Shown here one piece after another: positions 12,338-26,544 of a DNA stretch of 64,000 bases (the first letter of the stretch is position 1; every line of letters begins with the position of its first letter). The position numbers were made by a program, and so were the translations under genes. The notes beneath the pieces were generated by a model. It had not been told where the DNA came from and did no database searches. It saw nothing but the letters and a program-made list of their open reading frames with translations. Origin of the DNA: Bryobacterales bacterium (GTDB lineage Bacteria; Acidobacteriota; Terriglobia; Bryobacterales; UBA6623). The stretch lies in the NCBI GenBank assembly GCA_965237575.1, contig CBDEGI010000002.1:607022-671021 (forward strand). The letters are read 5' to 3'.

Positions 12338-15331
12338 TGATCGGCCAAACCATCTCGCACTACAAGATCACCGAAAAACTCGGTGAAGGCGGGATGGGAG
12401 TCGTCTACAAGGCCCAGGACACCGAGCTCGACCGGCCCGTCGCCCTCAAGTTCCTAGCGCCCCCACCTGCTCCGCGACGAAGAGGGCCGCAAGAGGTTCC
12501 GGCGCGAAGCGAAAGCCGCCGCCGCACTCGACCACCCCAACATCTGCACTGTCTACGAAATCGGCCAGGCCGATGATCAAAACTTCATCGCCATGGCCTT
12601 TCTCGAAGGCCGCACGCTGAGCAAGAAGATCAGCGATGGCCCGCTGAAGCTGCCCGAGGCCCTTTCCATTGCCACCCAGATCGGCGAGGGACTCGAAGCA
12701 GCCCACGAGAAGGGCATCGCCCACCGCGACATCAAGCCCGACAACGTGATGCTGATGAAAGGCTCGCGCGGGCTGCTCAAGATCATGGACTTCGGCCTCG
12801 CGCAACTCGCCGAGAGCTCGAAGCTCACTCGCGAGGGGACAACGCTCGGAACCCCCACCTACATGTCCCCCGAGCAAGCGATGGGGGAACCCACCGATCG
12901 CCGCTCCGATATCTGGGGTCTCGGCGGTGTGCTCTACGAGATGGTTGCCGGTAAGCCACCTTTCAGAGGCGAAGTCGATCAAGCGGTCATCTACTCCATC
13001 GTGAACGAGGAGCCGGAGCCGCTAACGGCGGTGCGCACCGGTGTTCCCAAGGAGCTTGAGCGCATCGTCGACAAGTGCCTGGCGAAGGATGCGGCTGAAC
13101 GCTACCAGCACGCCGAGGACTTGTTGGTCGATCTGCAGCGGCTGCGGCAGGAGTTGGAAACGGGAGCACCCAAGCCGGCGGCACGGCCTACACCTGCCCG
13201 CAGGTTTTCACCCGCCGTGATTGCTGCTGCCGGCGCGGTCTTGCTCGTTGCGGTGGGCCTTACTTGGTGGCTCGCCGGCTCATCGGAAACAGCCGCTCCC
13301 CCTCAATACAAACTGACCCAAATCACACGCGACACCGGCTACACCGCCGATCCGGCTCTGTCTCCGAACGGGCAGCTTCTTGCTTATGCCTCGGATCGTC
13401 AGGGCGACGGCAACCTTGACATCTGGGTGCAGCAACTGACCGGCGGGGGAAATCCGGTCCGCCTAACACAGCACGAAGCCGACGACCACGCGCCGTCATT
13501 CTCGCCCGACGGCAGCCGCATCGTCTTTCTCTCGGACCGCGACAACAGCGGGATTTACGTGACGGGGTATGCACTTGACTCCCGACGACCTCACACCTTG
13601 TGGTCGGCGACTGCGGCGACCGTACCCTCGAGGGGCCATCGGGCAGCGGTCGTGGGTCCTATAGCCGCCGCTCATTGCGCCCCGCGGGGGGACGGCAGCG
13701 GTTGACTTTGAAACCTGAAGGCGAAGCGCTCTTGAAACTCCCCAGCGTGCGCGAATAGTCCTCCAGAGCCCGGATACTAGACCTTGGGGCTTCGGGAGTC
13801 AAGTGCATACCCCAGTTACGTGATTCCGGCGCTTGGCGGAAGTCCGACACGCATTGGACGTGGCTGGCGATGGGCGGCACCCCGTTTCTCTCCAGATGGG
13901 AAGTGGGTCACTTTTTCTCGACCTAGGCAAGATAGCGATTTTCAACAGTTCTCCCATATTGAGATCGTCCCGGCTTCAGGCGGTCCACCGCGGATCGTGG
14001 AGGCAGGCCTGCCAATTGCCGCCGTGCCGATCTGGTCACCCGACGGACAGCATCTGATGTTCATAGGGAGCGAGGAGCCGGGTGGAATTGGCAAGCAGAT
14101 AGACCTCGACTGGTGGCTTGTGCCCGCCGCGGGGGGCGAGCCCGTTCGACTAGGAGCTCGAGAGCTATTCGAAAAACATAGAATCGTACCAGCGGGACCC
14201 ATCGATACCCATCCCAACAGGAGGTTCCCGGCTCCTCGCGCTTGGCTAGCTGACGATAATCGACTGGTCTTCGGCGGGGCGATCGGTGGTGCGGCAGCCA
14301 ATCTGTGGCAGGTTCGAATCTCACCCAGCGACGCCAGACTTGTCGGGGAGCCCCAGCGACTCACCTCGGGAACAGGCGAGGAAGACCCTTCCGCCTCCCA
14401 AGACAGCCTCATCGCGTTCGTCAACCCAGCCCGCGATTGGGATATCTGGAGCCTGCCGCTCGACGCTAATCGCGCCGAGGTCCGCGGAGAACCGGAGAGG
14501 GTCGTCTCAGCACTGAGCGACGAGCTGTACCCATCGATCTCGGATGATGGGCAAAAGCTTGCCTACGCGTCAGACCGCGCCGGTAACCGCGATATCTGGC
14601 TTCATGACCTAGAAACCGGCGAGGACACGCCCATAACGATCGCTCCCGAGAACGAGGGGCGGGGAACGATTTCACCCGACGGTTCGATGATCTCCTTCAT
14701 CCGCCGGGAGCAAGACAAACGCAACCTATACGTCATGGACCTCGTCCAAAGGAGAACGAAGCTGTTGGTCGAGGGCGTCGGCAGCATGTTGGACTGGATG
14801 CCGGGAGGCAAGCGAATCCTGTACTACACGCCTCCACCTCTACGCTGGAAGACCGTGGATGCGGAGACAGCCGAACAAGCCGATGTCGATCTCACGCACC
14901 CCGAGTACCACCCGGAAACGCTTCGATTCTCTCCTGATGGTGAGTGGCTTGCGTTCAATCTTGCGCTCCAACCCGAACGGCCGCTCTTCATTTCCCGTAT
15001 CGAGCAGGGCCAACCAACCGCACACGACGAATGGATTCAGATCACCGAGGGTTCGGCCGCTAGCCACCCTTGGTGGTCGCCCGACGGCAATGTACTCTAT
15101 TTCCGTTCCCGTCGCGACGGGTTCCACTGCGTCTATGCCCAGCCGTTGGAGCCCGCAACCAAAAAGCCGCAAGGGCCCCTGAAGTCGATCCGGCACTTCC
15201 ACGGGCGCATTCGTACTGTCGGTGTCGGCGGGGGAGGCTTCGGCTATGCCATGACCCACGATCGTCTCTATCTGCCGCTCGGCGAACGCAAGGCCAACAT
15301 CTGGCTGGCCGAACCGCAAACCGAGCCGTGA
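12337..15331 (+). pseudogene. Ser/Thr protein kinase with TM segment and TolB-like beta-propeller, disrupted by a homopolymer frameshift and a 253-bp TIR element
   Basis: Pieces are 12337..12576 (frame 1), 12593..13705 and 13784..15331 (frame 2). Kinase motifs: [38 protein letters not shown]. TolB-like repeats follow (SPNG/SPDG…). The C5 run at 12460-12464 shifts the frame; with C4 it reads [34 protein letters not shown]. Removing 13563-13815 plus one TSD restores …DNSGIYVIPALGGSPTRI…. Confidence 0.85.
13563..13815 (+). mobile_element. Non-autonomous TIR element, family A (MITE-like), copy 1, inside the kinase gene
   Basis: Termini are cGGGGTATGCACTTGACTCCCGA … TCGGGAGTCAAGTGCATACCCCag. It is flanked by the direct repeat TTACGTGA (13555-13562 and 13816-13823). 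About 99% identical to 63199..63452. Confidence 0.85.
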
Positions 15332-15428: not shown

Positions 15429-15465
15429 AAAGTACTTGACAATAGTGGACAACCCATTCTATCCT
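15429..15465 (+). promoter_or_regulatory. Candidate promoter (TTGACA-N18-TATCCT) overlapped by AT-rich palindrome AAAGTACTTg
   Basis: TTGACA at 15436-15441 and TATCCT at 15460-15465. The near-palindrome AAAGTACTTG at 15429-15438 recurs as the perfect AAAGTACTTT at 16539-16548. The region is unusually AT-rich for this window. Confidence 0.3.
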
Positions 15466-15475
15466 TGGCAGGAAG

Positions 15476-16102
15476 ATGGCTTCGCCCAACCCCATCCCCT
15501 CCCGCTCTACCGCTCCCCGTGACGAGCCGGTCGTCCTCCACGCCCACGCCATGGAGAACCTGCGGTTCATCCGCGAGACGATGGAAAGCTCGGTGGTATT
15601 CACGACCCTGCCCGGCTGGGGCGCCGTCGCTGTCGGACTGACCGCTCTGGCGGCGACCTGGCTAGCCGCGACCCGATCGTCCCACAGCGAGTGGCTGGCC
15701 ACGTGGTTGGCCGAGGCCGTGCTTGGCGTCGTGATCGCCGCGGCCGCCACAGCCTGGAAGATCCGCGGCACGGCAAGCCCCGTTCCACTGCGGCCCCTGC
15801 GAAATTTCGTTCTCAGCCTAGTGCCACCGCTGATCGCTGGAGCCATACTCACGGTTGTGCTGGTTCGGGCAGGCGCCATCAATGCCATACCCGGTACCTG
15901 GCTATTGCTCTACGGTGCCGGTATCGCAACCGGAGGCTCCGTCTCGGTGCGCATCGTCCCCGTCATGGGACTGTGCTTCATGTTGCTCGGTGCGCTGGCC
16001 CTGTTCTGCGACGCGTCTTGGCATAACGCGATCTTGGCCGCCGGGTTCGGAGGCCTCCATCTCGCTTTCGGGTTGGTCATCGCCAGGAGGTACGGTGGCT
16101 AG
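15476..16102 (+). CDS. Polytopic membrane protein, unknown function
   Basis: 208-aa ORF with SD AGGAAG and about 5 hydrophobic helices (GWGAVAVGLTALAATWLAA, AVLGVVIAAAATAW, LVPPLIAGAILTVVLV, LLLYGAGIATGG, VMGLCFMLLGALALF). Its stop overlaps the next gene's start. Confidence 0.65.
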   Translation: MASPNPIPSRSTAPRDEPVVLHAHAMENLRFIRETMESSVVFTTLPGWGAVAVGLTALAATWLAATRSSHSEWLATWLAEAVLGVVIAAAATAWKIRGTASPVPLRPLRNFVLSLVPPLIAGAILTVVLVRAGAINAIPGTWLLLYGAGIATGGSVSVRIVPVMGLCFMLLGALALFCDASWHNAILAAGFGGLHLAFGLVIARRYGG

Positions 16103-16505
16103 ATCAAGCGCGGCGCGCAAGCGCACCACCGAGCCGACCGGGCAGACGACGGAGGCAAGTCCGTCGGCAGAACGGAAGCCCACTCCCGTGCACTCCACGA
16201 AGAGCAACCAAGCGCTTCAGCTCAACCGGCTGATTCACGAAAGGACGCGACTAGCCATCGTCAGCGCCCTCGCCGTCAATACATCCCTCAGCTTCACCGA
16301 ACTGAAGACTCAACTGAATATCACTGACGGGAATCTCAGCGTGCACGCCCGTAAGCTCGAGGAGGCCGACTACATCGCATGCTCGAAGACTTTCGAGAAG
16401 CGCGTCCCGAAGACCCAATACAAGCTGACCCGTAGTGGCCGGCGCGCGCTGGAGCGCTACCTGGATCACATGGAAGCCTTGATCGAAGCCACACGGGACC
16501 ACTAA
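16095..16505 (+). CDS. Winged-helix (HTH_34-like) transcriptional regulator
   Basis: GTG at 16095 sits after AGGAGG (16085-16090) and overlaps the upstream stop by 8 nt. The sequence LNRLIHERTRLAIVSALAVNTSLSFTELKTQLNITDGNLSVHARKLEEADYIACSKTFEKRVPKTQYKLTRSGRRALERYLDHM is typical of small wHTH regulators paired with a membrane protein. Confidence 0.7.
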   Translation: MARSSAARKRTTEPTGQTTEASPSAERKPTPVHSTKSNQALQLNRLIHERTRLAIVSALAVNTSLSFTELKTQLNITDGNLSVHARKLEEADYIACSKTFEKRVPKTQYKLTRSGRRALERYLDHMEALIEATRDH

Positions 16506-16531
16506 AAGGCTTTTTTTTGGACATAGACTTT

Positions 16532-17311
16532 ATGAAACAAAGTACTTTTCAATCGTCATCCTTGCACGTAGCAATCATCATGGACGGCAACGGCCGCTGG
16601 GCTGCAGCGCACGGCCGGCCCCGCGTGGAGGGACATCGCCGCGGCGCCGACGCCGTTCGCCGAACCGTCGAGGCCTCGGTCAAGCTAGGCATCGGCACGC
16701 TGACGCTGCACGCCTTCTCGGCCGACAACTGGAAACGTCCCGCTCGCGAGGTGGACGAGCTAATGAGGCTGTTCCGGCGATTCCTGCTCGCCGAATCAGC
16801 ACGCTGCGCGCGTGAGGGTGTGCGTGTACAGGTGATCGGCCGCCGCGACCGCCTCGATGCGGCACTTCTATCCGCAATCGAGAAGACCGAATCTGCAACC
16901 TCGTCCGGCGCCGCGTTGCACTTGCGGATCGCGGTGGACTACTCGGCACGAGAGTCTACTCTTGCTACCGCGCGACTGCTGCGAGGCCGCGAGGATGTTA
17001 CGCCACAGGCCTTCGTCAAAGCACTCGCCGCCGCTATCCACACCGACGAAACCACCCCCGACGTTGACCTGTTGATTCGCACTGGCGGCGAGATACGCCT
17101 GAGCGATCTGTGCGGCTGGGACAGCGCCTACGCCGAGTTGGTCTTCAGCCAAAAGATGTGGCCGGACTTCGACGGCCTCGATCTCGCTTCGGCACTAGAC
17201 GAGTTCCGGAAACGCGAGCGGCGCTTCGGAGCGCTGCCGACTAACGGCGCGAACGGCACTTCCATGCCGATGCCCGCTGTCTTCATACCCCAAACCCCTT
17301 CCAAGGAGTGA
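16532..17311 (+). CDS. uppS: Isoprenyl transferase (undecaprenyl-diphosphate synthase family, cis-prenyltransferase)
   Basis: Signature HVAIIMDGNGRWA is present, followed by GHRRG…LTLHAFSADNWKRP…, IRTGGEIRLS and AYAELVFSQKMWPDF. ATG at 16532 is preferred over TTG at 16517. The next gene starts 10 nt after its stop. Confidence 0.85.
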   Translation: MKQSTFQSSSLHVAIIMDGNGRWAAAHGRPRVEGHRRGADAVRRTVEASVKLGIGTLTLHAFSADNWKRPAREVDELMRLFRRFLLAESARCAREGVRVQVIGRRDRLDAALLSAIEKTESATSSGAALHLRIAVDYSARESTLATARLLRGREDVTPQAFVKALAAAIHTDETTPDVDLLIRTGGEIRLSDLCGWDSAYAELVFSQKMWPDFDGLDLASALDEFRKRERRFGALPTNGANGTSMPMPAVFIPQTPSKE

Positions 17312-17321
17312 TGAACGAGAG

Positions 17322-19781
17322 ATGAAGCCCATCAGCCAAGAAGCCCAAACGCCGCCGGCCAGTGCGCCAAAGACGGCTTCGGAAACATTCCGCTTCGAAC
17401 TGCGTCAGCCGCCGGCCAAGCCAAACAAGCCGAAGGCGCCCCGTGTCAAGGCCCCCAGTGTCGAGGCCCCTGTGACCCTTGTGTTCACTGGACTGTTTGG
17501 CATCATCCTGCCGGCGGCGACGATTGCGATCGAGCTGTATACGCACATGTGCGCCGAAGTCTTCTTCGACCCCCTGCCGACCTTCTGGCACGCCTTGCTG
17601 GTGGGGTTGGCCCCGGCTGCGAACCTCGTGTTGGTTTGGCTCTTGGTACGCAGCAGACCGGTACCACTGCGGGCTCCTTTCGTGTTGAACGCCGTCGCTA
17701 TTGGAGTCTCGTGTTTCTATGCACTGCTGTTCCTGCCGCTCGCTCCGCTAGCGTTCGTAGCGGTATTGTTCTACGGCTTAGGACTGCTGCCGCTCGCTCC
17801 GCTTGGCGGCTTTGTCTCAGCGCTGCTGCTGCGCAGGGCGCTACGGAGGCGAGTACGGGCATCCGGTAGTGCTCGCTCCATACCGCGCGTGTGGAGCGGC
17901 ATCGCACTGGCGGCTGTCACGATCGTCCTGATTGAGCTGCCCGTCTCGCTGACCGGTTTGGGACTACGCTGGGCGGCGTCACCGGTTGCCGAAGATCGCG
18001 AGTCAGGCATTCAGTTCCTGCGGACGTTTGGGTCGGAGGAGGTCCTGCTGCATGCCACGAGCCCCAGACGCGGCAGGGGGTCCGACTTGATCGGGATGTG
18101 GCTCCTTGGTGATCCCGTTTCACCGGCGAAGGCGAAGGAAGTCTACTACCGGGTCACGGGCGAGGCGGCCCAGCCGGAAACGTCGCCCCGCTTTGTGTTT
18201 CCCAACTTCGATCCCGAGCAGGGAGGGGTTACCGTGGGCAGCTTTTCGCCGGGCCTCGACCTCGCCGAGTCGCGAATCGACAGCTCGGTCGACGCCGACG
18301 CGGCCCTCGCCTATTCACAGTGGACGATGGTGATCTCCAACAGTAACCAAGTTGCTCGCGAGGCTCGCGCGCAGGTCAAGCTGCCCAGTGGGGCAGTGGT
18401 ATCGCGAGTCACACTGTGGATCAACGGCGAAGAGCGAGAGGCTGCGTTCGGGGCCCGGGCCCGCGTGCGCGAAGCCTACGAACGCGTCGTCCGTACACAA
18501 AGGGATCCGCTACTCGTCACAACGAACGGCGCTGACCGCATCCTCATTCAGTGCTTTCCCGTCCCACGCAACGGTGAGATGAAGATCCGAATCGGCATCA
18601 CGCAGCCACTCGAGAATCGTGGTGATGGGTCATTGCTGTTCGACTTACCTCACTTCGTAGAGAAGAACTTCGCCATCGACGGTGCTGGGGTAGAGCACCG
18701 GGTCTGGGTCGAGATGGAGGGTGCACCGCTTCCGCCCGAGCTGGCTGGGTTCGAGGTCGAACGAACAGCGGACGGGGCCTTCGCGCTGCGCGGATCCGTC
18801 GAAGACTCGAAGCTGCGCAAGGCGGGAGTTCGGGTGCCATACCCGCAAGCTCCGCACCACGAATTGACTTGGACACCGGACCCACTCGACCCGGAGACCC
18901 ACGTCATCCAGCAGCGCTTCGAACTCCGACAATCGACGCCTCCCGAACATGTCGTGGTGGTTGTCGATGGATCGAAGGACATGCAGCCTTTTCTGCCCCA
19001 GATCGCCGACGCTCTTGATGCCATGCCCGGTGACTGGAAGACAGGAGTGCTCGTAGCGGCGGATCAGGTACTACCGCTTAACGACCCATCCGAACTGAGA
19101 GGCTTGCAGCTCGAGGGCGGCGCGGACAACGTGCCCGCTTTGGAAGAGGCTTACCGCCGTGCGGGTGCGGGCGATGCAGTCATCTTGTGGGTGCACGGCG
19201 CCCAGCCCGTGCTCATGGAGCGGACCGACGGCTTGCAACAGAGCTGGGAGCGCCGGCCGGGCCGGGTTTCTCTAGTCGCCATCCAAGGGCCGCCCGGACC
19301 AAACCGTATTCTCGAGAGCTTGGATGGCATCGCCGATGTCCGCTCTGTCACGAGGACGGTGAGCCTCACCGAAGACCTCTTGTATCTTGGGTCGCGTTGG
19401 GCCGGCGAGACCGCGGAATGGAAAGCCGTTCGGCGGAGACTGCCGAGGAGCGATCTCGGCCGGCACGATTTGGGCCAAAGGACCTCCTCCCACCTTGCAA
19501 AGCTCTGGGCCAATGATGAGGTAGCCAAGCTGGCCTCCTTAGGGATCTCTGACCGAGAGCATGCGGTTTCACTGGCTACCTCATATCAGATCGTCACGCC
19601 AGTTTCGGGCGCTGTCGTGCTCGAGACACAGGCACAGTACGAGCAAGCGGGGCTCAAGCCAGCCGACCCGGCGGACGTTCCCACCATCCCCGAGCCCGAA
19701 GTGTGGGCTCTGATGCTTGTTCTCACGGCATTGCTGGGCCGGCAGATGCTCAAGGCGAGGAGACCGTGGACAAGCGCCTAA
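17322..19781 (+). CDS. Polytopic N-terminal domain + VIT + vWA-like protein with C-terminal PEP-CTERM-type sorting signal
   Basis: 819 aa. About 6 TM helices lie in residues 50-210. VIT-like region: YSQWTMVISNSNQVAREARAQVKLPSGAVVSRVTLWINGEEREAAF…REAYERVVRTQRDPLLV. vWA-like region: VVVVVDGSKDM. C-terminus VPTIPEPEVWALMLVLTALLGRQMLKARRPWTSA has PEP, then a hydrophobic helix, then a basic cluster. Confidence 0.8.
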   Translation: MKPISQEAQTPPASAPKTASETFRFELRQPPAKPNKPKAPRVKAPSVEAPVTLVFTGLFGIILPAATIAIELYTHMCAEVFFDPLPTFWHALLVGLAPAANLVLVWLLVRSRPVPLRAPFVLNAVAIGVSCFYALLFLPLAPLAFVAVLFYGLGLLPLAPLGGFVSALLLRRALRRRVRASGSARSIPRVWSGIALAAVTIVLIELPVSLTGLGLRWAASPVAEDRESGIQFLRTFGSEEVLLHATSPRRGRGSDLIGMWLLGDPVSPAKAKEVYYRVTGEAAQPETSPRFVFPNFDPEQGGVTVGSFSPGLDLAESRIDSSVDADAALAYSQWTMVISNSNQVAREARAQVKLPSGAVVSRVTLWINGEEREAAFGARARVREAYERVVRTQRDPLLVTTNGADRILIQCFPVPRNGEMKIRIGITQPLENRGDGSLLFDLPHFVEKNFAIDGAGVEHRVWVEMEGAPLPPELAGFEVERTADGAFALRGSVEDSKLRKAGVRVPYPQAPHHELTWTPDPLDPETHVIQQRFELRQSTPPEHVVVVVDGSKDMQPFLPQIADALDAMPGDWKTGVLVAADQVLPLNDPSELRGLQLEGGADNVPALEEAYRRAGAGDAVILWVHGAQPVLMERTDGLQQSWERRPGRVSLVAIQGPPGPNRILESLDGIADVRSVTRTVSLTEDLLYLGSRWAGETAEWKAVRRRLPRSDLGRHDLGQRTSSHLAKLWANDEVAKLASLGISDREHAVSLATSYQIVTPVSGAVVLETQAQYEQAGLKPADPADVPTIPEPEVWALMLVLTALLGRQMLKARRPWTSA

Positions 19782-20557
19782 GAGATCCTCGCGTATTGCT
19801 GCTGGTGCAGGTGATCGCCTTCTGGCCCGTGTGGGGATGGTACGCCGCCCGCGTCAGCGATGGCTCCGACGACCCCTGGTGTCTGGCGGCTCTAGCGACG
19901 TTCGTGGTCCTGCTGCTGCGCGGCGGCGGTAGGCATGAACGCATCAGCGGGTCTTTATGGTTGCCGGCCCTGCTGACTGGCCTGTACGTTGTCACGGCGA
20001 TCACGCTCCCTCCGATCTTCAGCGCCGCACCCGCGGTGCTCGCCGTCGGGTCAACTCTTCTCTACTATCGGCGCGGCCGCTTCTTCCACCCTGGGGGGTG
20101 GGGCTTGCTACTGCTGTCGCTGCCGCTGTTTGCGTCACTTCAATTCTGCCTCGGGTATCCGCTGCGTGCGGTGGCCGGCGTGTTGGCGGCCTATCTGTTG
20201 AACCTCACCGGCTTCGGTGTGATCGCTGAAGGGACCCTCCTCAACTGGGGCGGGCAGCTTGTTGAGATCGACGCCCCGTGCAGCGGCATCAAGATGCTGT
20301 GGGCCGGCGCCTATCTGGCGTCGGTACTCGCGTGCCTGTACAACCTGAAAGCCACGCGTGTCGTTCTGTTGGGGCTCGGCACCGTCGTGTGTGTGATCGC
20401 CGGGAACGCATTGCGTGCAGCGGCGTTGTTCTATCTCGAGGCCGGTATCGTGCCGCTTCCGAGTTGGTCTCACAACGCTACCGGAATTGTTGTCTTCGCC
20501 GTCACGGCGTTGTTAGTCGTCAGGTTCGCCGAGCACCTTCGCATGGAGGCGGCATGA
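19766..20557 (+). CDS. Exosortase-family transpeptidase (dedicated to the upstream PEP-CTERM protein)
   Basis: Multi-TM protein with the exosortase signature residues: Cys in EIDAPCSGIKML, Arg in AGNALRAAALFY, His in SWSHNATGIVVF. The start is placed at GTG 19766 after GAGGAG and overlaps the upstream gene by 16 nt. The ORF-track start 19703 is also possible. Confidence 0.8.
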   Translation: MDKRLRDPRVLLLVQVIAFWPVWGWYAARVSDGSDDPWCLAALATFVVLLLRGGGRHERISGSLWLPALLTGLYVVTAITLPPIFSAAPAVLAVGSTLLYYRRGRFFHPGGWGLLLLSLPLFASLQFCLGYPLRAVAGVLAAYLLNLTGFGVIAEGTLLNWGGQLVEIDAPCSGIKMLWAGAYLASVLACLYNLKATRVVLLGLGTVVCVIAGNALRAAALFYLEAGIVPLPSWSHNATGIVVFAVTALLVVRFAEHLRMEAA

Positions 20558-21066
20558 GAAGCGCATCCGTGCTGTTGGCGACCCTGCTTTGCGCGGCCGT
20601 GGCGCCGTTCCTTCCGATCTCTGGCGACCACACTGGGCCCCAGGTCCCTTTCCCCGGCTGGATGAGCCATTGGAAGGGGCAGCCACTCGAACGTCTGCCG
20701 CTTTCCGAGCGAGAGGTCAAGTTTGCCGATGGCTTCCCCGGAAAGGTCGCCCGCTTCACCAGTGGCGAACACCAGTACGTGATCCGCTGGGTGCGCCGTA
20801 CGACGAGACAACTTCATCCAGCAGTCGACTGTTTTCGCGGGTCGGGTTATTCTGTCCAACCGCTGCCGATTCGAGTTGACGGCGACGGCGAACGTTGGGG
20901 CTGCTTCGAGGCAGCCCGCTCGGGCGAAGTACTCAACGTCTGCGAACGCATCTTCGACCATGACGGCAACGCCTGGGCCGACGTATCGGCCTGGTACTGG
21001 GCAGCCGCTTTGGGGCGAAGCAGCGGCCCTTGGTGGGCCGTCACGCGCGTCGCGTCCAAGAGGTGA
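20554..21066 (+). CDS. EpsI-like exosortase-associated protein
   Basis: ATGA start/stop overlap with the exosortase gene, with SD GGAGG at 20544-20548. Signal/anchor MRSASVLLATLLCAAVAPFL. The sequences FPGWMSHWKGQPLERLPLSEREVKFA and LHPAVDCFRGSGYSV resemble the EpsI family (H-P-x-x-C-x-x-G-x-G-W/Y). Confidence 0.6.
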   Translation: MRSASVLLATLLCAAVAPFLPISGDHTGPQVPFPGWMSHWKGQPLERLPLSEREVKFADGFPGKVARFTSGEHQYVIRWVRRTTRQLHPAVDCFRGSGYSVQPLPIRVDGDGERWGCFEAARSGEVLNVCERIFDHDGNAWADVSAWYWAAALGRSSGPWWAVTRVASKR

Positions 21067-21297: not shown

Positions 21298-21470
21298 GAA
21301 GGGGCGGCGCCGACAGACCTCTCAATGGAACACGACCGGCATCTGTACGACCAATCTTCTGAAGCATAATCTCCGTCTGGATCTGCCTCCCTCCACACGA
21401 ACTCCGGCCCGCCACGCCGACCTCGCCTGCTACATTGGTGCCTACCCTTCGCCGCGAAGGGACACCCTGC

Positions 21471-22772
21471 ATGGCGCTTGTCGACAGCCGAGCCCAGCGC
21501 ATGACCATGTTGTGCGCGATGTATCTGGCCCAAGGAATCCCCTGGGGCTTCATGACCATTGCGCTGATCTCCTACCTCACCGAGCGCGGCATCGGTGACG
21601 CGCAGGCCGGCGAGCTGACCGGCATCGTCTTGCTCCCCTGGACGTTCAAGCTCATCTGGGCGCCGCTGATCGACAGCGTCACAATCCGCTCGATGGGCCG
21701 GCGGCGTCCGTGGATCATCGGCGCGGAACTGATGATGGCGCTGTCGCTGCTCGGCATCCTGGCGATCGGCGACTTGACCGACAACCTCCGCCTGCTGGGG
21801 TGGATGTTCTTCCTTCACAACGTCTTCGCGTCGCTGCAGGACGTCTCGACCGACGCGCTCGCCGTCGACATCCTGCCGTACGAGGAGCAAGGCCGGACGA
21901 ACGGAATGATGTGGGGCACCAAGCTGATCGGCAAGGCGATCGGCGCAACGCTGATGGCCAACATCATCTACGCGTGGGGGCTGCCGGCGGCCGTGCTGGC
22001 ACAGATGATCGCGCTGCTGATCATCATGTTGTTCCCGATCTTTCTCATCGAGCGGCCCGGCGAGAAACGGTTCCCGTGGAGTGTGGGGAAGGCGCAGGCG
22101 ACCGGCCCCGGCGCGAGCGTACGCAGCCCCCTGGCCGTTCTTCGAGACCTGCGCCAGGCTTTCTCGCTCACCACAACGTCGGTGTTCTTCGTGTTCGGCA
22201 CGATCAGCATGATGGGTTGGGGCGTAGTCGAGGTGATCACGAAAACGCTCTACACCCAACAGCTCGATTGGACTTTCGTCGAGGTTTCGAACGTCGCCGG
22301 ACTCGCGGTTCTCACCGAGATGGTCGGCGCTTTTGGCGGAGGGTACTTCGCCGATCGATACGGCCGGCGCAAGATCATGATCATCGGCCTGGGTGGGTAC
22401 GGCCTGTTGGCAATCGTCTTCGGCGCCCTGCCCAGCCTATGGCACGTGCCATGGTTCGCCGCGGGCTATCTATTCTTGAATCCGGGGATCCTGGCGGTAG
22501 GGGCGGTCGGCTTCCTATCGATGTCGATGCGCATCTCGTGGACGCAAGCGGCCGCCACCGTGTTCACGATGTTTCTGACGGTGTCGAACATCGGGCACGT
22601 GATGGGCAACTGGCTCGTCGGCACGCTGCGGGAGACCTGGGCCCTCTCCTACGAGCACAGCTTCTTTGTAGTTGGGTTATTCATGCTGGCGCCCCTGCTG
22701 CTGCTGTCCGTAGTTCGCCCCGAAGAGGTCGATGAACAGAAGCTGCGGTACCTGGCAAGCGTGCGCTCGTAG
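21471..22772 (+). CDS. MFS transporter, AmpG/PAT-family-like
   Basis: About 12 TM helices. The MGRRRPWII loop after TM2 and the LQDVSTDALAVD motif are typical of AmpG-type permeases. The ATG 21471 start is preferred over the TTG start at 21435. Confidence 0.7.
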   Translation: MALVDSRAQRMTMLCAMYLAQGIPWGFMTIALISYLTERGIGDAQAGELTGIVLLPWTFKLIWAPLIDSVTIRSMGRRRPWIIGAELMMALSLLGILAIGDLTDNLRLLGWMFFLHNVFASLQDVSTDALAVDILPYEEQGRTNGMMWGTKLIGKAIGATLMANIIYAWGLPAAVLAQMIALLIIMLFPIFLIERPGEKRFPWSVGKAQATGPGASVRSPLAVLRDLRQAFSLTTTSVFFVFGTISMMGWGVVEVITKTLYTQQLDWTFVEVSNVAGLAVLTEMVGAFGGGYFADRYGRRKIMIIGLGGYGLLAIVFGALPSLWHVPWFAAGYLFLNPGILAVGAVGFLSMSMRISWTQAAATVFTMFLTVSNIGHVMGNWLVGTLRETWALSYEHSFFVVGLFMLAPLLLLSVVRPEEVDEQKLRYLASVRS

Positions 22773-23185
22773 TATTGCCTCAGGTGGCACTGTCCTGGAC
22801 GGTGATGTCCCTGATGGCAGGATCGCGGAGGACGGTGGCCCAAACGGCGGCCAGGCCTGCGTTGCTGAGACGAGATCAGCGCCCGTCACTGCGACAGCCA
22901 CGTCGGCGACCTGGGCCGGCTAGTCGGCCGTTTGGCAAGGTTTTCGGTAAGGTTGTCATTCATGGGTTGTCACGTCATCCTCGCCAGCCTCAGGGTAGCG
23001 CACCGGTCCGAGGTACTCGGCCGTTTTCTCCGCAAGTTATTGATTCGGTGGGATGAAGATTCTGTGACTGTGGTACCGACGATGGAGGTGTTGCACAACG
23101 GAATGGTCGTGTAGCGCCGATCCACGTTGGAACAGGGCCGCGAGGTCGCCTTGCCAACCCGGGTTCGGGCTTTGTCCCCGAACTG

Positions 23186-23261
23186 CCGAGGGGGACCAAC
23201 GCCCGAGCTGAGGCCGCAGGATGAAGGGGAGTGCCAAAAATGGGCTCCGTCCCCTTTAGCC
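23186..23261 (+). repeat. ~76-bp direct repeat DR1 (left flank of RAYT remnant)
   Basis: ccgagggggaccaacgcccgagctgaggccgcaggatgaaggggagtgccaaaaatgggctccgtcccctttagcc is repeated at 23719..23795 with a few mismatches. Confidence 0.8.
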
Positions 23262-23718
23262 CCCCAAGCGGCCGGATTCACTGGCGAATACGCTGCGGCG
23301 AACACACTCCCGCTACGCGCAGACCTTCAATGAGCATTACGGGCGCAGCGGACACCTGTGGCAGAACCGTTTCTTCTCGTGTTGCCTTGACCGCGATCAC
23401 TTGATCACGGCGCTGGCGTACGTGGACCTGAATCCTGTGCGAGCGGGAATGGTCGGGGACGCGCAGGAGTACCCGTGGTCAAGCGCTCGGCCGCACGTCG
23501 AGGAGGAGGACCCGCTCGGACTCATCGACTTCTCGCTGTGGCGAGAGGTGCGAGGGCGGGGTAACTGGGCGGAGTGTCTGAGCCGACCGTTGGATGCAGA
23601 GACGGTCCAGCGTCTCCGGGAGGCGACGCAGCGGGGGGTGCCCTTGGGGAGTGAGGCTTTCGTGAAGGCTTTGGAGCGTAGCACCGGACGGTGTCTGGCG
23701 CTGCGAGGACCGGGGCGG
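23260..23718 (+). pseudogene. 5'-truncated REP-associated tyrosine transposase (RAYT / COG1943 IS200-like) remnant
   Basis: The frame-1 translation LANTLRRTHSRYAQTFNEHYGRSGHLWQNRFFSCCLDRDHLITALAYVDLNPVRAGMVGDAQEYPWSSARPH… matches the C-terminal two thirds of RAYT-type proteins. No HUH-containing N-terminus and no start codon. The frame opens just after the TAG at 23257-23259, inside DR1. Confidence 0.7.
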
Positions 23719-23853
23719 CCGAGGGGGACCAAGGCCCGAGCTGCGGCCGCAGGATGAACGGGAGTGACAAAGAATGGGCTCCGTCCCCTTTAGCCCCAAG
23801 GCCCGAGCTGCGGCCGCAGGATGAATGGGAAGTGACAAAGAATGGACTGGACC
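23719..23853 (+). repeat. Direct repeat DR2 plus partial third copy (right flank of RAYT remnant)
   Basis: DR2 spans 23719..23795. A partial copy (ccaaggcccgagctgcggccgcaggatgaatgggaagtgacaaagaatgg…) spans 23796..~23853. Confidence 0.75.
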
Positions 23854-23907
23854 CTTCTCTACTGGTCTCGCTTTTTGGGTCCATTCCAGAAATCCGTTGC
23901 ATGGCGG

Positions 23908-23951
23908 CCCTAAAGGGGGCCCTAAAGGGGGCCCTAAAGGGGACGGAGCCC
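23908..23951. repeat. 12-bp tandem repeat (ccctaaaggggg x ~3) ending in CTAAAGGGGACGGAGCCC
   Basis: Read directly from the sequence. The terminal 18-mer is the reverse complement of gggctccgtcccctttag found in DR1 and DR2, and recurs at ~24942-24960. Confidence 0.8.
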
Positions 23952-23987
23952 TTTTCTGTCCTGGTGTTCACCGTTGTCACGCCGGCG

Positions 23988-25830: not shown

Positions 25831-25880
25831 GCCTAAAGGGCCTAAAGGGCAGTTCGGGGGCAGTTCGGGGCAGTTCGGGG
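25831..25880. repeat. Short tandem repeats: gcctaaagg x2 then cagttcgggg(g) x3
   Basis: Read directly from the sequence. cagttcggggacaaagcccg is the reverse complement of cgggctttgtccccgaactg at 23167-23186. Confidence 0.75.
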
Positions 25881-26544
25881 ACAAAGCCCGGACTCCGCCC
25901 GGCTCCGGGGCTCTGGCACCCTGCCATGATCCGTGGCACCCCCCTGGGACTCCGTCTTGCCATCGCACCACGAACCGCAATTTGAGTCGCGAATCTTCCA
26001 AAAATTGATTCCCCTTCCTTTCAATCACTTGCCGCGCGACGTGGGTCAAACCCCTTCCATCCGCTTGTTACCCTGGAATCGGAGGAAGAAGAGGAGCCAA
26101 GTCGAGCTCGGCGGAGTGCCAGATCGTTCCACGGGATTTCGTGAAAACGAGAGTTCGGGAGAGCCCCCAGGGCCCCCGAGTCATGCGCCGGGGGCGGCGA
26201 CACTCGTCCAGGGCGATACGGACTGCTGTTGAACCGACAACGGCTCGGTCCGCCGAGGCTTTTCCATCGCCCTGTCAGGGCTCGCGAGACAAGAGGTTCG
26301 AGACCTGGGGTTCCGCCTAGCGGCGTCACCCCAGGCTAACATCCGGTCGCCGCTTCGCGGCTAGGTTATGCGTCGGGGGTTCGCGGTGGGTGCGTGCCGG
26401 AGGCGCATGAGAGCGGGAGCGGTATCGAGGGCAGGAGGGTGAGTCGAAAGTTCTCCGCCGCCCCTCCAGGGCTTGAGGGCATGGTTGCCCGCATACCCAC
26501 GGTTGAAACCGTGGGCTATTATCGGCCCCTCCGGGGCGAAACGA

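Follow-up and report, generated by a model that had tools for sequence, protein, structure and literature searches.

An unnamed exosortase family with one ITIH-like VIT/vWA protein as its predicted substrate, encoded next to a mem-wHTH-uppS gene set in a Bryobacterales bacterium

The logic of one VIT/vWA protein served by one dedicated C-terminal enzyme is already seen in two described systems. In the XrtN system of Bacteroidota (TIGR04476 and TIGR04477), a dedicated exosortase is encoded beside one VIT-domain protein of about 800 residues, and in a marine proteobacterial system, formed by a sortase and an LPXTG-type signal, a VIT/vWA protein (the target modelled by TIGR03788) is the sole client of the enzyme. 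The MSEP-CTERM proteins (TIGR04286) are large proteins ending in a variant of PEP-CTERM, the ITIH chains lose a C-terminal propeptide and their new C-terminus is joined to a glycan, and the nucleophile used by sortase A is lipid II, which is undecaprenyl-linked. Archaeosortase A (ArtA), from the superfamily to which exosortases are homologous, has an active-site Cys and acts on many substrates with PGF-CTERM signals made of motif, helix and basic tail; a thioester intermediate resolved by a lipid amine has been proposed for it (PMC7157517). Here we consider six genes of a Bryobacterales bacterium (Acidobacteriota), located at positions 15476-21066 of a stretch of 64,000 nucleotides (contig CBDEGI010000002.1, positions 607,022 to 671,021; assembly GCA_965237575.1), hereafter the window. 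A preliminary description of this DNA had taken them for one exosortase cassette with an embedded UppS-family cis-prenyltransferase. The comparison of the window with 160+ related loci indicates that they are probably two units, an acidobacterial regulator-uppS operon (module A) and a self-contained, single-substrate exosortase system (module B), and that the adjacency of uppS comes from placement of the cassette in a few acidobacterial lineages.

The six open reading frames (ORFs) are all on the + strand, and their coordinates and tight junctions were confirmed as first reported. They are given below with two features that accompany them.

15436..15465, + strand: promoter-like site TTGACA-18-TATCCT, a consensus match 10 nt 5′ of mem
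15476..16102, + strand: mem, first gene of module A; 208 aa, about five transmembrane (TM) helices, no family match
16095..16505, + strand: winged helix-turn-helix (wHTH) gene, second of module A; HTH_34, GTG start, strong Shine-Dalgarno (SD) sequence
16532..17311, + strand: UppS, third gene of module A; cis-prenyltransferase, ATG start
17322..19781, + strand: VIT/vWA protein, predicted substrate, module B; 819 aa, inner-membrane protein with ITIH-like ectodomain
19677..19778, + strand: predicted C-terminal sorting signal of the substrate; residues 786-819, VPTIPEPE-V-W, hydrophobic helix, KARR
19766..20557, + strand: exosortase, module B; 263 aa, 8 TM, GTG start
20554..21066, + strand: accessory protein, module B; 170 aa, N-terminal membrane anchor and periplasmic alpha/beta domain

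The linkage of the two modules was examined from both sides. A species-level genome scan (one genome per species) gave 401 loci encoding exosortase relatives, and the locus counts that follow refer to the best 80, where gene order was read by tblastn with the six window proteins. These loci belong to Acidobacteriota (Bryobacterales, Blastocatellia/Pyrinomonadaceae), Planctomycetota, Gamma- and Deltaproteobacteria, Verrucomicrobiota, Bacteroidota, Bdellovibrionales and others. The order VIT/vWA protein, exosortase, accessory protein, on one strand, was kept in 70 of the 80, the exceptions being mostly truncated contigs. When uppS was searched within 10 kb in the 52 cassette loci whose upstream DNA extended over 3 kb or more, it was found in only two, namely L001 (Bryobacterales, the closest genome) and L013 (Blastocatellia), while module B stood without it in the other 50 and, in addition to these, in L166. 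From the side of UppS, a metagenome scan with this protein as the query gave 80 loci, including a close set with UppS at least 49% identical (of which 23 loci extended far enough upstream to be scored, and 11 had 3 kb or more downstream). In the close set, the wHTH gene lay 5′ of uppS in 22 of the 23 loci, usually together with mem, and the cassette lay 3′ of uppS in one of the 11 (L113). The more distant UppS loci had the wHTH gene in 1/35 and the cassette in none.

The triad mem-wHTH-UppS occurs without the cassette in L083 and L084, and the first of these is directly comparable to L165. This latter locus contains mem, wHTH, UppS, the VIT/vWA protein, exosortase, accessory protein and a YjbQ-family gene, and then a convergent HtrA gene (- strand) and a kinase-PD40 gene (STK-PD40, + strand). 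In L083, these HtrA and kinase-PD40 genes come immediately after the triad. This shared backbone means that the cassette is a clean presence/absence unit at one site 3′ of uppS. So, the adjacency of uppS and cassette is absent from most relatives and kept in the nearest clade, UppS is a lineage-restricted neighbour rather than a system component, and its embedding in the cassette, as earlier proposed, is not supported. A functional link between both is unlikely. Concerning other possible members of the cassette, an all-against-all clustering of flanking ORFs revealed no further gene broadly shared; extra conserved partners were thus rejected as candidates, since the clusters obtained reflected nothing more than antisense shadow ORFs and the synteny of close Pyrinomonadaceae.

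Module A is an independently conserved triad and the standard acidobacterial setting of this UppS clade; it was found in the window and in L083, L084, L086, L089, L090, L093, L094, L101-L104, L107, L111 and L141. The mem protein displays about five hydrophobic segments in hydropathy analysis and matched no family among the Pfam and NCBIfam profiles; its orthologues are directly 5′ of the wHTH gene in L013, L045, L081, L083, L084, L165 and many metagenome loci. The wHTH protein matches PF13601 (HTH_34) with 94.6 bits (threshold 27). UppS scores 211 bits with TIGR00055 (cutoff 109.55) and 224 bits with PF01255 (Prenyltransf; cutoff 27), and stays below the cutoff of NF011412 (317.5 versus 334 bits). 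In its alignment with E. coli UPPS (E 1e-50), the substrate-binding motifs DGNGRW, NWKRP and RTGGE-R-S are preserved. The triad looks like an undescribed acidobacterial operon, which may be concerned with the regulation of lipid-carrier synthesis. We infer that the window UppS has a housekeeping role and makes the general undecaprenyl-diphosphate carrier under the mem/HTH_34 regulator pair; no second uppS was found within the 64-kb window.

The window UppS contains the motif RLSDL(C/L)GW, which is unusual. It was considered whether SDL(C/L)GW could mark a cassette-specific UppS, and this was rejected, as the motif occurs also in the cassette-less L083, while in L013 and L113, where uppS is linked to the cassette, the canonical SDFLLW is present. 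To judge from these sequences, the motif is a clade trait. As a side observation, a 526-aa polytopic membrane protein of the DUF4153 family (268 bits) is encoded after UppS in L013, L094, L101 and L103, and a DUF4153 gene lies between module A and the cassette in L013 (5132-6712), L045 (5880-7460) and L058 (549-2090).

Concerning the enzyme of module B, its assignment to the exosortases, like those of the HTH, UppS and VIT proteins to their families, was sustained by profile scores above cutoff: 79 bits with PF09721 (versus 25.7) and 40 bits with the TIGR04178 signature (versus 23). It has 8 hydrophobic segments. The Cys, Arg and His motifs that had been pointed out are present, and in an alignment of 31 sequences C172, N214, R217 and H236 are invariant (codons of Cys172, 20279-20281; Arg217, 20414-20416; His236, 20471-20473). 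A protein search returned 189 relatives, mainly from uncultured Acidobacteriota, named only 'exosortase/archaeosortase family protein', and no second exosortase was found within the window. None of the named NCBIfam Xrt subfamily models reaches its cutoff with the window enzyme. The nearest is exosortase Q (XrtQ, NF012182), with 169.6 bits over positions 9-253 of 256 and a cutoff of 270; the 31 relatives stay also below 270 bits, and five further loci score 173-202 bits. Exosortase Q is short like the window enzyme, with no fused C-terminal domain, and no paper describing it, its substrate or its context, or the present exosortase/VIT family, was found in the literature searched. The next best model is TIGR04476 (XrtN), with 53.6 bits versus a cutoff of 200. 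It has 406 positions including an extra fused domain, whereas the window enzyme has 263 aa and the domain is encoded separately; moreover, XrtN is from Bacteroidota, while the window family is spread over many phyla. Judged by its profile scores, module B thus appears as an unnamed family without a matching subfamily model.

The sixth gene had been called EpsI-like. Three accessory orthologues gave no match with EpsI models (Pfam at E up to 1; NCBIfam, where only the C-terminal region of XrtT was hit with 20-31 bits), so the name does not hold, in contrast to the association with the exosortase, to which the protein is adjacent or fused. The accessory gene lies 3′ of the exosortase gene in 78 of the 80 loci. 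The window protein aligns to XrtT positions 295-452 of 472 (31 bits) and shares 49% identity (E 3e-50) with the C-terminal half of a 450-aa exosortase fusion (P0099), the fusions found among relatives having 445-461 aa. The XrtT match, together with the homology to fusions, means that the accessory protein is a free-standing version of the C-terminal periplasmic domain of long exosortases. Its AlphaFold2 (AF2) model reached pLDDT 75 from only 7 sequences, and a Foldseek comparison of it with the PDB gave nothing better than E 0.1, so no fold was assigned.

The substrate is known among its relatives only as 'VIT domain-containing protein' or 'hypothetical protein'. The topology deduced from hydropathy and the positive-inside rule places the N-terminus in the cytoplasm, followed by five TM helices (about residues 50-218), a periplasmic domain of 570 residues, and a C-terminal helix with its basic end in the cytoplasm. 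The VIT half of the former VIT/vWA assignment was borne out by sequence (PF08487, residues 328-424, 41.2 bits versus 26.5), while the vWA half was borne out only by fold: there was no Pfam match for this part, and a PDB sequence search with the VIT protein was empty at E up to 1. The AF2 model of the substrate, made from an alignment of 45 sequences, reached pLDDT 84.9 and pTM 0.80, and its best PDB match was ITIH1 (6FPY; E 4.9e-18, about 590 columns), spanning VIT and vWA with only 11-12% sequence identity. A vWA fold for approximately residues 543-720 is supported through this match of the model only. The metal ion-dependent adhesion site (MIDAS) would be non-canonical: D549, S551 and H625 are invariant and D602 and N603 near-invariant in the 45 sequences, the third Ser of DxSxS is not kept, GG-x-D-N replaces GGT, and His625 takes the place of the TDG Asp. 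The TM domain has, in its first periplasmic loop, a conserved cluster formed by E71, C77, D83, P84 and H90 which, together with the altered metal site, suggests a functional site. Besides the non-canonical MIDAS, the window protein differs from ITIH1 in being bacterial and N-terminally membrane-anchored, and its processing enzyme is unrelated; the analogy with ITIH chemistry is speculative.

Among the described families, the best NCBIfam match of the substrate is TIGR04477, the XrtN-system VIT protein, in line with the similarity to VIT partners of Bacteroidota exosortases that had been pointed out; the score is far below cutoff (118.3 versus 250 bits). The polytopic N-terminal region is homologous to that of MSEP-CTERM proteins (TIGR04286, 55.2 bits, cutoff 150; window residues 52-161 match model positions 210-311), although the window motif is PTIPEPE and not MSEP. 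With TIGR03788, no match of the window substrate was found at E 0.01 or better, and its N-terminus is polytopic, unlike that target.

The C-terminal tails of the VIT proteins (last 48 residues), compared in about 70 loci across phyla, follow the pattern V-P-T-I-P-E-P-E-x-(W/V/Y), then about 16 hydrophobic residues and a basic cluster. In the 45-sequence alignment, P787, P790, E791 and P792 are invariant and V786, T788, I789 and E793 nearly so. The window tail displays the tripartite PEP-CTERM layout (IPEPEVW, ALMLVLTALLG..., KARR), with a hydrophobic run that is short and broken by Arg, and its best model match was the tail of NF038129 (15.4 bits); with the PEP-CTERM model TIGR02595 it stays below the cutoff of 16 and was not reported even at E up to 10. 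Three of four orthologous tails reach TIGR02595 (20.6-21.9 bits versus a cutoff of 16), and the same three align also to the C-terminal 25 positions of TIGR04477. A screen for motif and hydrophobicity in window ORFs of at least 60 aa detected no other PEP motif with helix and basic tail, so the statement that this is the only such tail in the window held. Three loci of the same exosortase clade lack the polytopic VIT protein and have, 5′ of the exosortase, proteins of about 700 aa similar to the marine sortase target (L021, 3788-5878; L036, 2253-4415; L071, 4819-6855; 426-451 bits with TIGR03788, cutoff 551), which terminate in PTVPEPE followed by a helix and a basic tail. The presence of this tail on another VIT/vWA architecture beside the same exosortase means that the signal travels with the enzyme clade, not with the passenger. 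There is thus strong evidence, at the level of sequence comparison, that the PEPE tail is the exosortase recognition element and, with the trio in 70/80 loci and the VPTIPEPE tail near-invariant, the idea of a dedicated single-substrate system is upheld.

As regards expression, the junctions between the six genes are close. The mem and wHTH genes overlap by 8 nt (GTG 16095, TAG 16102), with AGGAGG immediately 5′ of the wHTH start; wHTH and uppS are separated by 26 nt from ATG 16532, or by 11 nt if the in-frame TTG 16517 is used; the VIT/vWA and exosortase genes overlap by 16 nt (GTG 19766, TAA 19781); and exosortase and accessory genes share an ATGA overlap at 20554-20557. SD-like sequences precede the wHTH, VIT/vWA, exosortase and accessory genes. 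A terminator scan between the six genes gave none that was convincing. Two promoter-like sites were found, versus 0.7 ± 0.9 in shuffled sequences, which is weak consensus evidence, and it is possible that a single promoter ahead of mem serves all six genes. Modules A and B are probably co-transcribed. A run of eight T (AAAAGGCTTTTTTTTGG) immediately follows the wHTH stop, in the interval that precedes uppS (16506-16531); it was not called in the terminator scan and could have a role in uppS start choice or in attenuation.

Several observations weigh against the interpretation of two units brought together by cassette placement. The juxtaposition of modules A and B is found in the window, L001, L081/L082 and L165, separately in L113, and also in L013, and a neighbour-joining tree of the VIT protein distributes them over two or more separate groups. 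The full six-gene order recurs in L081/L082 and L165, so the arrangement is not due to chance, and the recurrence of the juxtaposition exceeds what random placement predicts; it could come from an ancestral arrangement, from co-regulation by the wHTH protein or from a functional tie. The loci L045 and L058 keep mem-wHTH, YjbQ and DUF4153 genes beside the cassette, with no uppS there. The uppS and VIT/vWA genes adjoin closely, being 10 nt apart in the window (17311 to 17322) and overlapping by 4 nt in L081, and junctions of this kind imply co-expression. Finally, the gene artA is syntenic with pssA/pssD only in some Methanosarcina, and yet both are needed for ArtA-dependent processing (PMC7157517).

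An explanation that would account for part of these data is regulatory: the mem-wHTH pair would sense the state of the envelope or of the lipid carrier and control one transcript, which in some Acidobacteriota has been extended to the cassette, with no chemistry shared between UppS and exosortase. It agrees with one promoter-like site ahead of mem and no internal terminators, with the vicinity of cassette and mem-wHTH in L045 and L058 though uppS is absent there, and with the 58-79% identity of the wHTH orthologues in loci having both modules. However, the wHTH gene is near the cassette in only 3 of the 52 loci, most acidobacterial cassettes being without it, no operator for the wHTH protein was identified, and the promoter call is a weak consensus match. 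This explanation is possible, although we consider it unlikely.

Turning back to the exosortase system as a self-contained unit, its mechanism can be modelled on archaeosortase A and sortase A. The substrate would insert into the membrane via its five N-terminal TM helices and display in the periplasm the ITIH-like VIT/vWA ectodomain, with VPTIPEPE, a TM helix and a basic cytoplasmic tail at its end. The 8-TM exosortase would recognize the PEPE motif at the membrane surface and Cys172 would attack it, assisted by Arg217 and His236, with release of the C-terminal helix and formation of an acyl-enzyme, to be resolved by water or another nucleophile. A role as helper is presumed for the periplasmic protein of 170 aa, which some relatives carry fused to the enzyme. 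As the N-terminal anchor would be retained after C-terminal cleavage, the process would amount to the maturation or attachment of a resident membrane protein, not to export.

The acceptor is the point at which UppS could enter the system, by supplying a polyprenyl-phosphate-linked acceptor or anchor for the released C-terminus. The translationally tight junctions between uppS and the VIT/vWA gene in the window and in L081, the recurrence of the adjacency in more than one clade, and the use of undecaprenyl-linked lipid II by sortase A are in favour of this possibility. There is also the precedent that the sparse artA-pssA-pssD synteny correctly foretold the lipid need of the archaeosortase (PMC7157517). 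In that case, however, the lipid pathway is that of PssA/PssD, not a cis-prenyltransferase, and no counterpart of the resolution by lipid amine was found in the literature searched for any exosortase. Searches linking exosortase with the VIT domain or with undecaprenyl, as well as sortase with inter-alpha-trypsin and von Willebrand, gave nothing relevant, and a paper on F. johnsoniae exosortase deals with XrtF only. Against the participation of UppS are the 50/52 cassette loci without uppS within 10 kb, the constancy of mem-wHTH as partners of the UppS clade whether the cassette is present or not, the loci L045 and L058, where mem-wHTH is beside the cassette and uppS is missing, and the lack of a cassette-specific sequence change in UppS. 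Undecaprenyl phosphate is made in every bacterium, so no dedicated synthase would be needed, and this disfavours the proposal, which we regard as highly improbable. Equally doubtful is its more specific form, in which the cassette joined the uppS operon in a subset of Acidobacteriota because an envelope precursor linked to undecaprenyl diphosphate offers the amine or hydroxyl on which the acyl-enzyme resolves, the C-terminus of the VIT/vWA protein becoming glycan-linked. If it were true, there would be a bacterial counterpart of the link between ITIH and chondroitin sulfate, and the exosortase acceptor would be identified.

The least credible alternative is that the segment PEPE-helix-basic tail is an uncleaved second membrane anchor and the exosortase homologue acts on something else, which would fit the low model score of the window tail and the existence of five N-terminal TM helices in the substrate, but not the near-invariance of V-P-T-I-P-E-P-E across phyla while the helix varies, unlike in a plain anchor, nor the same tail on a VIT/vWA protein of unrelated architecture beside the same exosortase clade, nor the strict gene order and invariant catalytic residues.

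With the interpretation of module B as a dedicated exosortase system, the family offers a compact model for the question of the exosortase acceptor, as it comprises three genes and one substrate, has an almost invariant VPTIPEPE signal, and can be compared across hundreds of natural variants. Together with XrtN and the marine sortase, it forms part of a recurring pattern in which an ITIH-like VIT/vWA protein is the only client of a dedicated enzyme of C-terminal processing. By analogy, the pattern hints at a shared biological role for the covalent C-terminal attachment of the ITIH-like fold. Models of the subfamily and of its sorting signal can be built from the present alignments, and the annotation of the neighbour uppS as part of the system is unwarranted.

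Concerning other neighbours of the cassette in related loci, a YjbQ-family gene (PF01894) flanks it repeatedly (L081, 12605-13096; L165, 9348-9845; L045, 5385-5867; L058, 51-530). It is 3′ of the accessory gene in one clade, and between the wHTH and DUF4153 genes in another, where, in L045 and L058, it stands in the position of uppS. The genes of L045, labelled Heliobacteriaceae, share 65-81% identity with their counterparts in L013 and L058, both from Blastocatellia; L032 and L044, labelled Heliomicrobium, were noted along with L045. From these identities, the Firmicutes label of the L045 contig, from a metagenome-assembled genome, may be a binning error.

In the window, the large ORFs were annotated in roughly 1.6-32 kb, that is, about 1.6-15 and 21-32 kb flanking the six genes. 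No gene of polysaccharide synthesis or export, or of exopolysaccharide (EPS) or glycan metabolism, was found among them, and a location of the cassette inside an EPS locus was rejected, the flanking large ORFs being hydrolases, a BNR protein, 6PGD, SDR and an MFS transporter. The 5′ side holds a kinase-PD40 gene broken into two ORFs, hydrolases and a BNR sialidase-like protein. The broken gene, for a Ser/Thr kinase with a PD40 beta-propeller, occupies 12593-13705 and 13784-15331, the first ORF starting at position 79 of the kinase profile; as it is one gene of 905-911 aa in L083 and L165, it is probably a frameshifted pseudogene or an assembly error. On the 3′ side, an AmpG-like MFS transporter (21435-22772, same strand) lies 369 nt 3′ of the accessory gene. 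It scores 110 bits with PF07690 and 87.6 bits with TIGR00901, well below the cutoff of the latter, and the clustering of related loci did not show a conserved position for it beside the cassette. The 3′ side also contains an aldehyde dehydrogenase, 6PGD and SDR, as well as REP-like repeats accompanied by the remnant of a transposase. The REP-like repeats (23163-23958 and 25869-25893) include direct repeats of 85 nt and 35 nt and inverted arms of 25-31 nt, and the short ORF 23401-23757 located amid them, which contains DLNPVRAG...YPWSS, resembles what is left of the C-terminus of a REP-associated tyrosine transposase.

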